57,613 nt of DNA, from the NCBI GenBank assembly GCA_017519005.1, contig JAFWTG010000060.1:1-57613 (forward strand), read 5' to 3'. Both the position numbers and the translations under genes were made by a program. This document shows, one piece after another, positions 47,747 through 54,328 of the stretch (the first letter of the stretch is position 1; each line of letters starts with the position of its first letter). This stretch comes from Oscillospiraceae bacterium (GTDB lineage: Bacteria > Bacillota > Clostridia > Oscillospirales > Oscillospiraceae). The notes below the pieces were generated by a model. That model saw nothing but the letters and a program-made list of their open reading frames with translations. It was not told the DNA's origin and ran no database searches.

Positions 47747-48043
47747 ATGAAAATGAAGCTGATCAATCGCGGAGATTCCGCGGATATCCAACTGATCGGC
47801 CGCTTGGACGTCAACGCCGCCCCGGACGCGGAACGCGCCATGCTGGATGCCGCAGCCAGATTCCATTCGGTCTGTCTGGACCTGGAGCACCTGGATTATA
47901 TCTCCAGCGCCGGCCTTCGGGCGATCAAGAATTTTTACATCGCCATCCGAAAGAATGGCGGCACTTACAGCGTCAAGAACGTGAACAGGCCGATCATGGA
48001 GATCTTCGAGGCCACCGGATTTGTTCGTCTTCTCAAGCTGTAA
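47747..48043 (+). CDS. STAS-domain anti-sigma-factor antagonist-like protein (SpoIIAA/RsbV family)
   Basis: 98 aa with LDLEHLDYISSAGLRAI (conserved phospho-serine context DxxxSSxGL). The RBS is GAAAGGAAGGA. Confidence 0.8.
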   Translation: MKMKLINRGDSADIQLIGRLDVNAAPDAERAMLDAAARFHSVCLDLEHLDYISSAGLRAIKNFYIAIRKNGGTYSVKNVNRPIMEIFEATGFVRLLKL

Positions 48044-48080
48044 TGCGGAACGATAACGAAAGAGGCAGGTGGTCGCCTTG

Positions 48081-51197: not shown

Positions 51198-54100
51198 ACG
51201 GAAATCGACTGCTTGACCGGCTGTTGGCGCTTCTGCTGGCCCTTCTCTGCTGGAGCTTCGCGGCCTTCCCCGCGTCGGCGGCCGAGGACGGCGACAGCTT
51301 CGAGGCGGAATACGCCGCTACCGTTTACGACTATTTCTCCGGTTTTCCCTATACCGAGGCCAACGTCATGGCGCAAACGCCGGACGGCTACCTGTATATC
51401 GGCAGCTACGGCGGCCTGACGCGCTTTGACGGGCAGCGCTTTGAGGTCGTTTCCGATATCTCCAGCGCGGTCTGCCTCTACGTGGACCGGCAGGGCCGCC
51501 TGTGGGTCGGCACCAACGAGATGGGCGCCGTCTGTCTGGAGCAAGGCGTTCTGACTGTCTACGGGCAGGCGGACGGCCTGCCCTCCGATTCGATCCGGGG
51601 TTTTTGGGAGGACCCGGACGGCGGCATCTATATTGCCACCGTCAGCGGGCTTGTGATGCTGGAGCGCACGGGCAGCGTGCTCCCCGTCCTGGACGACCGC
51701 CTGCGCAGCGTCTCCGTCACGATGCTCTCCGGCGATGGCGCCGGGACTGTCTACGGCGTCACTGTGGACGGAAACGCCTTCGCGCTGCGCGAGCGCAGCG
51801 TCGTCAACTGGTGGTCTGTGGAGGAGATCGGAGCCGACGTGGGCTGCGTCTATGCGGACCCGCTTCATGAAGGCCTGTTCTGGTGCGGAACCGAAGGCTC
51901 CGAGGTCCTGCGCTGTACGGCAGACCGGCCCGTTTCCGACTGGGAGCATTTCTCCATCCCCGGGGTCAGCGGCGTCAACTGTCTGCTGCTGGAAAGCGAC
52001 AGGCTGTGGGTCTGCTGCGGCGACGGCATCGGCTGGCTGGACGCCGCGGGCAGCTTCTACCGCCTGGACCATATCCCGGTCAGAAGCGCTGTGGAGCATA
52101 TTCTCCAGGATATGGAGGGGAATCTCTGGCTCTCCTCCTCCCGCCGCGGCGTGCTGAAGCTCTCTAAAAGCCGATTTACGGACGTCAACGTCCTCGCCGG
52201 ACTCCGGGAGCCCTCCGTCAGCGCCGTTTGGGTGGAGGGCGAAACCGTCTGGCTGGGGACCGACACGGGCCTGAGAGCGCTTGATGAAGCAGGAAAAGCC
52301 CTGGAGCTGCCGCCCTGCCTCGACGCCCTGTCCGGCGTCTCGGTCAGAAGCGTTGTCGGGGACGGGAACGGCAGCCTGTGGATCTGCAGCGACAGCGAGC
52401 TTGGGCTTGCGCGATATGAGCCGAAGACCCGGCGGCTGAGCTGGCTCCGGGAAGCGGACGGCCTGCCGTCGAATCACGCGCGGGACGTGCTGGTGCTGGA
52501 CGACGGAACGCTGCTGGTCAGTACGCCGGAGGCGCTCTGCCTCCTTCGCGGCGGAGCCGTATCGCGCTGCTGGGGGCAGGCGGACGGCCTCTGCGACAGC
52601 GAGATTCTCAGCATGTGTCAGGCGCCCGACGGCACGGTCCTGCTGGGCAGCAACGGCGACGGACTCTTCGTATTGGAACACGGCGCCCTTCTTCCCTTCT
52701 CCGCCTCGAGCGAGCTGCAGGGCGGCGTCATCCTGCGTCTGCTGCGGGATCTGCCCCGCCAGTGCGTCTGGATATTGAGCGGGAGCGGAGAGCTTGGCGT
52801 TCTGAAGGACGGAAGCATTCGCAGCCTGGACGGCCTGCTTCCGAACGCAAGCCATTCCGGCAGCCCCTTCTATGATCTGCTGCTGTATGAAGACGAGCTC
52901 TGGCTCCTCGGCGGCACGGGACTCTGCGCGGTTCGGGCGCAGCTGCTGTTGGACGGAAGCCCCCAGACGGGACGGTCCTATAACCGAGGCAACGGCCTTC
53001 CCCACGTCAGCGCGCCCCATTCCAGGAGCTTTGTCACGGCGGATGGCACCGCATGGCTCAGCGGCAGCGACGGACTGACGCGCATGTCGTTTGCAGACGC
53101 GGAAGGGCCGAAACGCATCCCGATGTTTGCGATTCCCTGGGTGGAGATCGACGAAACGCGGCTCCTGCCGCCCGCCGGTGAGAGTCTGGAGCTGGCTTCC
53201 GACAATCAGCGGCTGCGCATCCACGCCGCCGCCATCACCTTTGCGCTGGAGGACCCGGAGCTGGTATACCGGCTGGAGGGCTACGAGGACGCCTGGACCC
53301 ACGCCACCGCCGCCACGCTCACCGACGTCGTCTACACGAATCTGCCCGGCGGCGACTACGTATTCCGCTTCGGTTCTCCCGGAGGAGAAGCCGGGGAGCT
53401 GCAGGCGGAGTTTGCGCTTCGGATTCATAAGGAGCTGGCCTTCTATGAGCATCCGACCGTGTGGATTCTCGGTCTTCTGATTCTCCTCCTGCTCGTGGCG
53501 GCGCTGATCTGGCTGCTCCTGCGCCGCCAGCGGAAGTCCCTGGCGCGAAAGCATGAGGAGGCGCGGATCAACAACGAACTGAGCATGGCGGCAAAGATTC
53601 AGATGGATATGCTCCCCGACGATTCCACGGCCGTATCCGGACGGGAGGAGTTCGAGATTGAGGCCATGATGCACCCCGCAAAGGAAGTTGGCGGAGATTT
53701 CTACGACTTCTTTCTTGTGGACGAGGATCACCTGGCCGTGGCTGTGGCGGACGTCAGCGGGAAGGGCGTTCCGGCCGCGCTGTTTATGATTATCTCCATG
53801 GCGCTGCTGAAAAGCGAGACCAAGGTTCGTCTCAGTCCCGCCCGCGTCCTGGAGGCGGTCAACGCCAAGCTCTCCGAGAACAATCCAAACAATATGTTCG
53901 TCACGGTCTGGCTCGGCGTGCTGGAGCTCTCCACAGGATTGTTGACCTGGGCGGACGGTGGTCACGAAAAGCCCCTGCTTTATCACAACGGAACCTGGGA
54001 CTACCTGGAAAAACACAACGGCGTTGCGGTCGCCCTGATGGAGCCTGAGCTGCTGGAGCTGGAAGAGGACCCGCCCTTCGTCGATCAGGAGATCTGCCTG

Positions 54101-54328
54101 AAGCCCGGAGACCTCATCTTCCAATACACCGACGGCGTTCCGGAAGCGACGAATGCAAACGACCAGCTCTTCGGCGCCGAACGCCTTCTGGAGGCGCTGC
54201 GGGACAGCTCCGCCGCACAGCCCAAGGCCGTGCTCAAGCAGGTCAAAGCCTGCGTGGACGGCTTCGTCGGAACAGAGCTGCAATTTGACGATATCACCAT
54301 GCTGGCCCTGGAATACCGCGGCCGCTGA
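51194..54328 (+). CDS. paralogous sensor phosphatase (propeller/Y_Y_Y/TM/SpoIIE-PP2C)
   Basis: It has the same architecture. The PP2C half is highly similar to the upstream gene (NNMFVTVWLG.LELSTG, EEDPPFVDQ, FDDITMLA), while the sensor half is diverged. There is an ATGA overlap with the upstream stop, and the RBS is GGAGGGAGGG. Confidence 0.8.
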   Translation: MNGNRLLDRLLALLLALLCWSFAAFPASAAEDGDSFEAEYAATVYDYFSGFPYTEANVMAQTPDGYLYIGSYGGLTRFDGQRFEVVSDISSAVCLYVDRQGRLWVGTNEMGAVCLEQGVLTVYGQADGLPSDSIRGFWEDPDGGIYIATVSGLVMLERTGSVLPVLDDRLRSVSVTMLSGDGAGTVYGVTVDGNAFALRERSVVNWWSVEEIGADVGCVYADPLHEGLFWCGTEGSEVLRCTADRPVSDWEHFSIPGVSGVNCLLLESDRLWVCCGDGIGWLDAAGSFYRLDHIPVRSAVEHILQDMEGNLWLSSSRRGVLKLSKSRFTDVNVLAGLREPSVSAVWVEGETVWLGTDTGLRALDEAGKALELPPCLDALSGVSVRSVVGDGNGSLWICSDSELGLARYEPKTRRLSWLREADGLPSNHARDVLVLDDGTLLVSTPEALCLLRGGAVSRCWGQADGLCDSEILSMCQAPDGTVLLGSNGDGLFVLEHGALLPFSASSELQGGVILRLLRDLPRQCVWILSGSGELGVLKDGSIRSLDGLLPNASHSGSPFYDLLLYEDELWLLGGTGLCAVRAQLLLDGSPQTGRSYNRGNGLPHVSAPHSRSFVTADGTAWLSGSDGLTRMSFADAEGPKRIPMFAIPWVEIDETRLLPPAGESLELASDNQRLRIHAAAITFALEDPELVYRLEGYEDAWTHATAATLTDVVYTNLPGGDYVFRFGSPGGEAGELQAEFALRIHKELAFYEHPTVWILGLLILLLLVAALIWLLLRRQRKSLARKHEEARINNELSMAAKIQMDMLPDDSTAVSGREEFEIEAMMHPAKEVGGDFYDFFLVDEDHLAVAVADVSGKGVPAALFMIISMALLKSETKVRLSPARVLEAVNAKLSENNPNNMFVTVWLGVLELSTGLLTWADGGHEKPLLYHNGTWDYLEKHNGVAVALMEPELLELEEDPPFVDQEICLKPGDLIFQYTDGVPEATNANDQLFGAERLLEALRDSSAAQPKAVLKQVKACVDGFVGTELQFDDITMLALEYRGR

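Follow-up and report, generated by a model that had tools for sequence, protein, structure and literature searches.

A STAS protein and two propeller-type phosphatases as a candidate signalling module of a type IV secretion-like operon in gut and rumen Clostridia

Introduction

The partner switches known so far serve sigma factors, biofilm programmes and, in one instance, a secretion system of type III (T3SS). Considered here are three genes at 47747-54328 (+) of a 57,613-nucleotide stretch of DNA from an Oscillospiraceae bacterium (contig JAFWTG010000060.1 of assembly GCA_017519005.1; the whole stretch is referred to below as the window), which encode a STAS-domain protein followed by two membrane phosphatases of the SpoIIE/PP2C type and which close an operon for an apparatus resembling type IV secretion systems (T4SSs). 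The proposal, for which the case is about evenly balanced, is that this STAS-PP2C-PP2C set is a dedicated signalling module of the T4SS-like machine, with dephosphorylated STAS as its output.

The nearest functional analogue of the module would appear to be the BtrU (PP2C), BtrV (STAS) and BtrW (kinase) set of the Bordetella bsc T3SS locus, in which, as here, partner-switching genes are encoded together with a secretion locus. BtrV is required there post-transcriptionally, and BtrU and BtrW are required for secretion (PMC8256260). The same Bordetella locus encodes the extracytoplasmic function (ECF) sigma factor BtrS, a feature shared with 21 of the relatives of the window locus. However, the Bordetella machine is the T3SS of a Gram-negative pathogen whereas the one here is T4SS-like and belongs to Gram-positive gut anaerobes, BtrU is a soluble PP2C in contrast to the membrane sensors with large ectodomains of the window, the Bordetella locus has the kinase that the window does not, and there is no sequence-level orthology past the shared domains.

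In Bacillus subtilis, the RsbU/RsbP-RsbV-RsbW-SigB and SpoIIE-SpoIIAA-SpoIIAB-SigF systems have in common with the window the aligned phospho-serine of the STAS protein and a SpoIIE-family PP2C (SpoIIE itself being membrane-bound), and their RsbW-like kinase is matched in relatives of the window locus. Unlike these switches, the window has neither sigma factor nor kinase in cis, its STAS gene lies among secretion genes, and its inputs are extracytoplasmic propellers. Since neither kinase nor target is present in cis, the window module corresponds to the input/antagonist half of a partner switch. With SypA/SypE of Vibrio fischeri, RbaV/W/Y of Rhodobacter and HsbA/HsbR of Pseudomonas, the unphosphorylated STAS protein acts on a non-sigma or unknown target (PMC8256260). 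The STAS-as-output behaviour of SypA, RbaV and HsbA is that proposed here, but these systems concern biofilm, a gene transfer agent and flagellar/RpoS functions, are not in T4SS-like operons and have their kinases in cis. A parallel of a different type is the PpkA/PppA/Fha1 pathway of type VI secretion, in which a membrane-sensing kinase/PP2C pair gates an assembled secretion machine post-translationally; it employs a Hanks-type kinase and an FHA protein on another machine, whereas the parts pertinent to the window are STAS and RsbW-type.

On the input side, the relevant comparison is with the hybrid two-component system (HTCS) sensors BT4663, BT3049 and BT4673 of Bacteroides thetaiotaomicron (PDB 4A2L/4A2M, 3V9F and 3OTT), which have the same two seven-bladed-type propellers, Y_Y_Y domain and transmembrane helix. 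Their output is a histidine kinase, receiver and AraC domain, while that in the window is a PP2C and the host belongs to the Gram-positive Clostridia. BT4663 is a heparin/heparan sulphate sensor (PDB title), and as identity to the window proteins is just 16-18%, ligand class is not transferable.

For the apparatus itself, the best family matches of the VirB4-like and VirB6-like proteins are with minimal T4SSs of Gram-positives and Mollicutes (Mbov_0396/0397 of the Mycoplasma integrative conjugative element, MMCAP2_0566, and the Clostridioides CD1110 type), which likewise have a VirD4 coupling protein. Unlike these conjugative systems, the locus considered here has housekeeping flanks, a giant exported protein and a signalling module, its VirB4-like protein falls below the equivalog cut-off, and the recurrent families scanned from 80 related loci include neither relaxase nor integrase nor transposase.

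A STAS protein common to the related operons

Related loci, cited below by L numbers, were gathered from two sources. For the genome census, one genome per species was scanned for VirB4-like ATPase relatives, of which the 80 best were taken as loci with 10-kb flanks; open reading frames (ORFs) were called and clustered, representatives of the resulting families (F numbers) were compared with Pfam, and each locus was mapped by family hidden Markov models (HMMs) and tblastn. For the metagenome census, contigs were searched with a STAS alignment and the best 80 loci mapped. Frequencies given for kinase, PP2C and sigma factor are lower bounds because the flanks were limited to 10 kb.

The gene at 47747..48043 (+) encodes a 98-aa protein consisting of a STAS domain only (Pfam STAS 3e-13, also STAS_2; family HMM 5e-37), which at 56 bits exceeds the cut-off of 53.45 for the NCBIfam anti-sigma factor antagonist family TIGR00377. 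A phosphorylatable serine in the context DYISSAGL had been pointed to in a first-pass annotation made from the letters of the window, and this is borne out: the predicted phosphorylation site, Ser54 (codon 47906..47908, +), lies within that motif and aligns with RsbV Ser56 and SpoIIAA Ser58 in alignments with PDB sequences. In 49/49 STAS orthologues Y[VI]SSAGLR (Ser53-Ser54-Ala-Gly-Leu-Arg) is present without change.

Of the 69 genome loci whose sequence takes in VirB4 as well as the giant gene that generally accompanies it, 55 have a STAS orthologue. In 48 of these 55 it is positioned exactly between VirB4 and the giant gene; the median gaps are 15 and 39 nt, and in several cases there is a 4-nt overlap. 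The 14 of 69 without it are mostly on short contigs or belong to a variant where STAS is expected beyond the 10 kb that was fetched. The reciprocal search points the same way, with T4SS-like genes at 47 of the 53 informative metagenome loci that hold the closest STAS relatives (the 80 best loci comprise 47 that are T4SS-like, 27 whose flanks are too short and six, at 38-48% identity, that are clearly elsewhere). An association of STAS with T4SS genes in related genomes, on which the standing of the early annotation partly hung, is thus found in both directions. In addition, when pairwise identities are compared, STAS correlates with the giant gene at r 0.78, with VirD4 at r 0.64 and with VirB4 at r 0.58, at least as strongly as the machine genes do among themselves. 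These correlations mean that STAS is co-inherited with the machine, without implying physical contact.

By its distribution, STAS is a constant, conserved and co-inherited component of the machine, and the kinases, phosphatases and 5′ transcription regulators are exchangeable parts of the system.

Two tandem propeller phosphatases

PP2C1 (48081..51197, +; 1038 aa; ATG start, with an alternative GTG at 48069) matches Reg_prop at 6.6e-25 and SpoIIE at 3.3e-47. It comprises a signal/transmembrane segment at aa 10-28, an ectodomain of a double propeller plus Ig-like domain at ~36-734, a transmembrane segment at 746-764 and a SpoIIE-type PP2C domain at ~808-1028. PP2C2 (51194..54328, +; 1044 aa; Reg_prop 1.6e-20, SpoIIE 1.7e-44) has the same architecture, with an N-terminal hydrophobic segment and a second transmembrane segment at aa 758-776, and its Y_Y_Y match, 4.4e-6, is just over the cut-off. 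The proposal of two paralogues of propeller, Y_Y_Y, transmembrane and SpoIIE type accordingly holds as to architecture, with the reservation that Y_Y_Y is undetected by Pfam in PP2C1 and is seen there as a beta-sandwich in the structure model. That AlphaFold model (pLDDT 85.4) has two propellers, the beta-sandwich (residues 632-734), a long, 50-residue helix (742-794) and the fold of a PP2C.

In Foldseek comparisons, the PP2C1 ectodomain superposes over ~780 columns on the periplasmic domains of BT4663 and BT3049 (E ~1e-38, target TM-score 0.70-0.75), in keeping with the early likening of these proteins to Bacteroides HTCS sensors, and the C-terminus of the model matches the PP2C domains of SiaA and RssB (target TM-score 0.80-0.85). 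Sequence matches of the two ectodomains in the PDB are to 4A2L, at 8e-24 and 1.5e-17. The cytoplasmic part of both phosphatases consists of a coiled helix and PP2C only, with no histidine kinase, receiver or AraC output. Judged by the model, the ectodomain belongs structurally with the Bacteroides HTCS sensors, here coupled to another kind of output.

The phosphatase halves had been termed highly similar and the sensor halves diverged; the contrast is real, but at 56.5% identity for the PP2C domains versus 35% for the sensor halves 'highly similar' was an overstatement. The motifs GGDFYD, D(I/V)SGKG, D(A/G)GHE, TDG and DD, which are read here, after SpoIIE/RsbU, as the PP2C metal-binding motifs, are present in both paralogues. 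The ATGA at 51194-51197, in which the stop codon of PP2C1 overlaps the start of PP2C2 and on which the suggestion of translational coupling was based, was confirmed.

The propeller-PP2C architecture is common in Clostridia (1863 database matches). Those at 50-56% identity to the window proteins are in an ordered STAS-PP2C-PP2C trio with overlapping stop/start codons, directly after very large genes. In the sister clade (L011/L101, L100, L102) the PP2C pair is kept with 4-8 nt overlaps at the operon end after STAS, its first gene orthologous to PP2C1 and its second to PP2C2. As each sister-clade gene is orthologous to its positional counterpart, the duplication is old and both copies have been retained. 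The VirB4 of that clade (73% identity over 70% of the window protein) is in a VirD4...VirB4-giant-p391 operon on a 106,856-nt contig, and its trio is on an equivalent 106,820-nt contig from another sample. The catalytic domains of the window PP2Cs are 54-58% identical to the short T4SS-linked PP2Cs of L105, L111 and L019 versus 46-47% to orphan propeller PP2Cs, and on these comparisons they belong to the T4SS-linked lineage. Within that lineage the input domains vary: multi-transmembrane, a two-transmembrane ectodomain of ~180 aa, dCache, or propeller/Y_Y_Y.

Two observations concern the surroundings of rpsI. A 39%-identical orphan propeller-PP2C at L012 8058-13162 adjoins rplM-rpsI in a genome from the same sample series, and in one strain of the window's species rpsI is just past the GH3 end of the T4SS-like locus (L003 19900-20297). 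The two neighbourhoods may be related.

Kinase and sigma factor in the window and its relatives

A search of all six frames of the 57.6-kb window, using an HMM built from 13 T4SS-linked kinases of related loci with E up to 10 and filters off, gave no T4SS-type RsbW-like kinase, and family scans gave no sigma factor in the window. Apart from the LytS-type histidine kinase next to the operon, its GHKL proteins are confined to the hydrogenase cluster at the other end of the window, as had been stated at the outset: a HATPase_c_2 protein at 4155-4574 (-) and a HATPase_c protein at 1244-1786 (-). The former was entertained as the cognate kinase and judged unlikely, the kinase HMM giving no match to it; indeed neither GHKL protein of that cluster is matched. 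The first-pass annotation had described the module as without cognate kinase or sigma factor. This is correct for the window but is a trait of the lineage and not of the system, since a RsbW-like HATPase_c_2 kinase (135-170 aa, Pfam 1.5e-24; best PDB match, RsbW) is present in 20 of the 80 genome loci and in 29 of the 80 from metagenomes, and an ECF-type sigma factor in 21 of the 80 genome loci.

The kinase of related loci is usually after the family F8 gene and ahead of a membrane PP2C, or else directly beside STAS, and its pairwise identities track those of STAS (r 0.90; n=11 loci). Especially pertinent is L105, where the order is VirB4-giant-F13-F8-STAS-kinase-PP2C-PP2C-STAS2 and whose STAS, at 54% identity, is the closest long-contig relative of that of the window; it amounts to the window 3′ module, likewise with two tandem phosphatases, plus the kinase. 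Where at least 2.5 kb follow F8 (n=20), 10 loci have the kinase, three a PP2C without kinase and seven neither; permissive searches found no hidden kinase in the loci lacking one, and about half of the adequately covered loci have STAS without a kinase in cis. Given that related loci carry both kinase and PP2C, the window module is best seen as the kinase-less remainder of a classical STAS/kinase/PP2C set. The kinase is either unlinked or lost in this lineage. A trans-encoded kinase is realistic, as L110 has an unlinked STAS-kinase pair of the same subfamilies in a housekeeping context, between pnp and ftsK-recA.

Kinase presence does not follow that of the ECF sigma factor: loci of the type that begins with a histidine kinase have RsbW-like kinases without a sigma factor, and ECF-type loci are often without the kinase. 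In other variants of the module the kinase is accompanied by a receiver protein, or an HD_4 protein goes with a STAS-APH-like fusion. The fusion, an unusual one in which a second STAS domain is joined to an APH-type (kinase-fold) phosphotransferase, is at L038 21308-22501, L040 10968-12727 and L022 2033-3613 (-), preceded by an HD_4 protein or followed by a HATPase_c_2 kinase. F8 itself, an uncharacterised family (~200 aa; e.g. L056 19270-19878; found in loci from L016 to L183), is almost always beside parts of the switch: ahead of the kinase where the gene order is the common one, and ahead of STAS where it is that of the Oscillospiraceae. The window lacks both F8 and the kinase. F8 is a candidate for the switch's target or for an adaptor.

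The operon and its apparatus

With a G+C content of 62.7% long shadow ORFs are frequent in the window, and its genes were called by setting the coding strand with a GC3 test before Pfam and NCBIfam scans. On the + strand from 26880 to 54328 there is a gap-poor row of genes of ~27 kb (intergenic gaps of -4 to 78 nt) in the order VirD4, p164, p467, p329, VirB6-like, VirB4-like, giant, p391, STAS, PP2C1, PP2C2. There is no convincing + strand terminator between VirD4 and PP2C2, terminator-like matches there being no commoner than in shuffled sequence. An intrinsic-terminator-like hairpin with U-run follows PP2C2 at the 3′ end of the operon (54378..54435, +), and RNA folding over 54325-54440 gives -55 kcal/mol (z -6.5; 0/200 shuffles equally stable); further terminator-like sites are at 54342-54380. 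The early views that the trio is at the 3′ end of a T4SS-like operon and that no terminator precedes it are both sustained, the former by strand, small gaps and the presence of STAS orthologues in the operon across families of Clostridia. The hairpin at 46462-46493 over the giant-gene stop was rejected as an internal terminator (14-bp stem, no + strand U-tract, z -1.8); it may have a role in the processing or stability of the mRNA where the giant gene gives way to the distal ones. STAS, PP2C1 and PP2C2 thus belong, by this arrangement and its conservation, to the T4SS-like operon and are not chance neighbours of it.

Upstream, the sole sigma-70-like match on the + strand of the operon region in a consensus scan is TTGCAA-17-TAGAAT with TG at 26796..26824, ahead of VirD4, which is a pattern match only. 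Divergent from the operon are genes for a LytS-type sensor histidine kinase with several transmembrane segments (24287..26086, -; Pfam His_kinase 6e-15, HATPase_c 5e-14) and an HTH(XRE)-receiver response regulator (26083..26682, -; HTH_3 3e-13, Response_reg 1e-19). Homologues of the former are upstream of 16 related loci, and full-length homologues of the latter, at 41-50% identity, are upstream of L027, L031 and L044. The HTH-receiver protein is likely the transcriptional regulator of the operon.

The first gene of the operon encodes a VirD4-type coupling protein (26880..28919, +; T4SS-DNA_transf 6e-54, TraG-D_C 5e-33, TrwB_AAD_bind) with 65-82% identity to counterparts in related loci, and the three proteins that come next (164, 467 and 329 aa) have no family match. 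Related loci have a T4SS_pilin (PF18895) gene at the operon start. Its positional counterpart, p164 (28916-29410), was considered as a pilin and judged improbable in that role, being hydrophilic and without a pilin HMM or Pfam match. The VirB6-like polytopic membrane protein (31891..34644, +) has four transmembrane segments and matches NCBIfam MMCAP2_0566 at 121.5 bits (cut-off 90) and Mbov_0396. The VirB4-like ATPase (34693..39093, +; 1466 aa; Pfam P-loop_TraG and DUF87), with an N-terminal transmembrane segment and a long C-terminal extension, matches NCBIfam VirB4_plasma at 6e-160 and 534 bits, under the equivalog cut-off of 590, with CD1110, TraC and VirB4_CagE also matched.

The giant exported protein of 2463 aa (39093..46484, +) begins with a hydrophobic segment and signal peptide and has no Pfam or PDB sequence match; its residues ~825-2400 are 26-33% identical to the giant gene product of most related loci. 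It is followed by the membrane-anchored p391 (46534..47709, +; N-terminal transmembrane segment), which belongs to F13 (F13/p391 HMM 1e-55), the family that follows the giant gene in related loci. Close database relatives of p391 number just 10, and a PDB sequence search with it gave no match.

Family scans of the window showed no relaxase, oriT, integrase or replication genes, and there is no relaxase, integrase or transposase in the recurrent families scanned from the 80 loci (F6-F14 and F18, which are not all of the families). An integrase that some strains have is part of a prophage beyond GH3. Identity with the 'Hodor' conjugative megaplasmids, which also have giant proteins, was rejected: those have Rep_3, sortases and a 7300-aa protein and lack STAS. 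From gene content and distribution the apparatus seems to be a T4SS-like machine that is chromosomal and conserved among Clostridia of the gut and rumen.

Database relatives of the VirB4-like ATPase number 607, most of them with 60-75% identity in the core, and at least 198 species-representative genomes encode one. Hosts of the 80 loci are rumen/gut Oscillospiraceae, Lachnospiraceae, Ruminococcus, Eubacterium ruminantium, Pseudobutyrivibrio and other Clostridia, with Eubacterium ruminantium FB3002, Ruminococcus sp. YRD2003, Lachnospiraceae bacterium C10 and Ruminococcaceae bacterium FB2012 as cultured carriers. The common gene order opens in one of two ways, with an ECF-type sigma factor or with F18 and a LytS-type histidine kinase (in some loci also a response regulator), and continues with T4SS pilin (PF18895), p467, VirD4, p329, VirB6-like, VirB4-like, STAS, giant, F13 (the homologue of window p391) and F8, and then, where present, RsbW-like kinase and membrane PP2C. 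An Oscillospiraceae variant has VirD4-F8-STAS placed after F13, and in the window and its sister clade VirD4 is first and STAS-PP2C-PP2C last. Eight of the loci (L033, L035, L040, L041, L045, L046, L050 and L086) are on contigs in metagenome-assembled genomes labelled Bacteroidaceae, Paludibacteraceae or Bifidobacteriaceae. Such odd labels of Clostridia-type loci are probably due to mis-binning; a mobile locus, or one of unusual coverage or composition, could also lie behind them.

Other features of the window

The flanks of the locus are the hydrogenase and GH3 genes and, in one strain, rpsI. The former are part of a sensory-[FeFe]-hydrogenase-like cluster at 755-5564 (-), which encodes two NuoE-like 2Fe-2S, two DRTGG, HATPase_c_2, Fe_hyd_lg_C/FeS, PHP and HATPase_c proteins. 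Next to it is a defence-like island (6635-16101) with a NUDIX/Zn-ribbon protein at 6635-7465, a SIR2_2/AbiH-like protein at 7495-8463, a 1418-aa WD40-repeat protein at 8560-12816 (-) and an LRR-Roc-COR protein. The last is apparently frameshifted near 14420-14480, with LRR and Roc in 14422-16101, and with COR-A/B and a trace of HNH in 13115-16060, an ORF that overlaps the first.

Beside the histidine kinase/response regulator pair is a 2665-aa ORF (16206-24203, -) with coding-type GC3 and without a transmembrane segment or a Pfam or PDB sequence match. It has one weak relative among the 80 loci (L063), and its product may serve the machine as substrate or effector, or be unrelated to it. At 57108-57447 is a tandem array of at least three units of 107 nt, 88-91% identical and each with the palindrome GAAAACATGCCGGGGGCATGTTTTC, and many metagenome contigs of this species stop near it. 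In some strains (L096) a prophage with integrase, repressor and SSB is inserted just past GH3.

Discussion

In the mechanism proposed, the operon would be transcribed from a sigma-70-type promoter governed by the divergent LytS-type kinase and HTH-receiver regulator. A RsbW-type Ser kinase, in-operon in relatives but presumably encoded elsewhere in this genome, would phosphorylate STAS on Ser54. The two PP2C ectodomains would differ in the ligand that they read outside the cell, which by fold analogy only is probably a glycan or surface polymer, and the signal, passed through the transmembrane segment and coiled helix, would activate the cytoplasmic PP2C such that STAS is dephosphorylated. Dephospho-STAS would then most likely bind a component of the machine, or a kinase that holds one, and so license an apparatus that has already been made, release of a sigma factor being a less likely route.

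Post-translational gating by STAS is, on the comparative evidence, plausible and slightly favoured. STAS as the output is favoured by its constancy while kinase and sigma factor vary, and over sigma release by the failure of kinase presence to track the ECF sigma factor. Gating of the machine is preferred to sigma release because the operon has its own two-component regulators and sigma-70-like promoter. The precedents of SypA, RbaV and BtrV also favour it (PMC8256260).

Several considerations weigh against gating by a phosphorylated and dephosphorylated STAS. In other strains the 10 kb past GH3 contain no kinase, the region being prophage or ending in repeats, and there is none on the sister-clade contigs; without one in the window, its downstream flanks or the sister clade, a phosphorylation cycle is not demonstrable for the window. 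Direct evidence of STAS contact with a T4SS component is lacking. The PP2C ectodomain has 17% sequence identity to BT4663, so that the ligand idea is one of fold analogy. Propeller-PP2Cs at 36-39% identity are orphans among housekeeping genes, with neither STAS nor T4SS nearby, from which it follows that such proteins can act on other substrates. The census ORFs came from a simple longest-ORF picker that is error-prone in high-GC loci, for which reason the counting maps use six-frame HMM and tblastn matches, and the family HMMs are ad hoc. Finally, an ECF-type sigma factor opens the operon in the 21 of 80 loci, and in L037 kinase, PP2C and ECF sigma factor adjoin, because of which classical sigma control fits at least some lineages.

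Extended to the window, that last point becomes a rather doubtful though serious alternative, in which an unlinked RsbW-type kinase holds an ECF-like sigma factor for the operon or a wider regulon, dephospho-STAS frees the sigma factor, and the module sets the amount of the machine and not its firing. STAS, HATPase_c_2 kinase and SpoIIE PP2C do occur together in relatives, the window STAS is over the TIGR00377 cut-off, and in L082 the ECF sigma gene has no space for a neighbouring anti-sigma gene. Placement of switch genes within the operon that they control also has a precedent in the sigB operon. However, sigma factor and kinase are both missing from the window, whose operon does have a two-component pair of its own and a sigma-70-like promoter. 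In relatives there is no preference for kinase and ECF sigma factor to be together, as is evident from the histidine kinase-type loci with kinase and no sigma factor, and where both are present the kinase is mostly ~20 kb from the sigma gene. RsbW-type anti-sigmas are known for group-3 sigma factors and are not known for ECF ones.

A second alternative, considered unlikely, is that the module is decayed or rewired, with STAS permanently unphosphorylated and constitutive, or a structural or chaperone subunit, and with PP2Cs that were recruited by chance and have other substrates. Kinase and F8 are both missing from the window and sister clade, about half of related loci also lack a cis kinase, and the unrelated contexts of distant propeller PP2Cs are again relevant. 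Set against this, Ser54 and its motif are invariant in kinase-less clades, STAS and both PP2Cs are kept as an ordered, tightly coupled trio across lineages of 46-70% identity, the PP2C catalytic domains are of the T4SS-linked lineage, and the unlinked STAS-kinase pair of L110 makes a kinase in trans realistic. Very improbable, and largely refuted by synteny, is that STAS-PP2C-PP2C is an independent cassette, for instance for glycan use with the GH3 glycosidase whose gene comes next: HTCS-type sensors usually govern glycan-use loci and there is a weak promoter-like match over the STAS start, but such matches are no commoner than in shuffled sequence, the strong terminator separates PP2C2 from GH3, the sister clade has no downstream GH3 and always has the giant-gene region upstream, and STAS is inside the operon in dozens of genomes.

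Dedicated signalling to the machine can also be put in a bolder form, advanced tentatively as a possibility: the loci may represent an undescribed class of chromosomal non-conjugative T4SS-like machines, widespread in rumen/gut Clostridia, in which STAS is built in as a gate subunit on the cytoplasmic side and acts directly on the VirB4/VirD4 ATPases or on giant-protein export, and in which interchangeable sensor phosphatases and optional kinases match firing to extracellular cues. If true, this would be the first partner-switch-gated type IV-like system. Searches of full-text literature gave no account of this gene cluster or of a partner switch connected with a type IV-like machine, and nothing relevant on propeller-SpoIIE phosphatases.

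The link of a partner switch to a type IV-like machine is a conserved design in Lachnospiraceae, Oscillospiraceae, Ruminococcus and Eubacterium genomes, and because cultured strains carry it the question is an experimentally testable one. The variety of input domains is a natural series of sensor-domain swaps onto one output, and a STAS protein that is constant while its cis kinase is dispensable bears on what STAS-only proteins bind when there is no sigma factor. More broadly, the loci point to a secretion- or pilus-like system, large and uncharacterised, among the abundant fermenters of gut and rumen.

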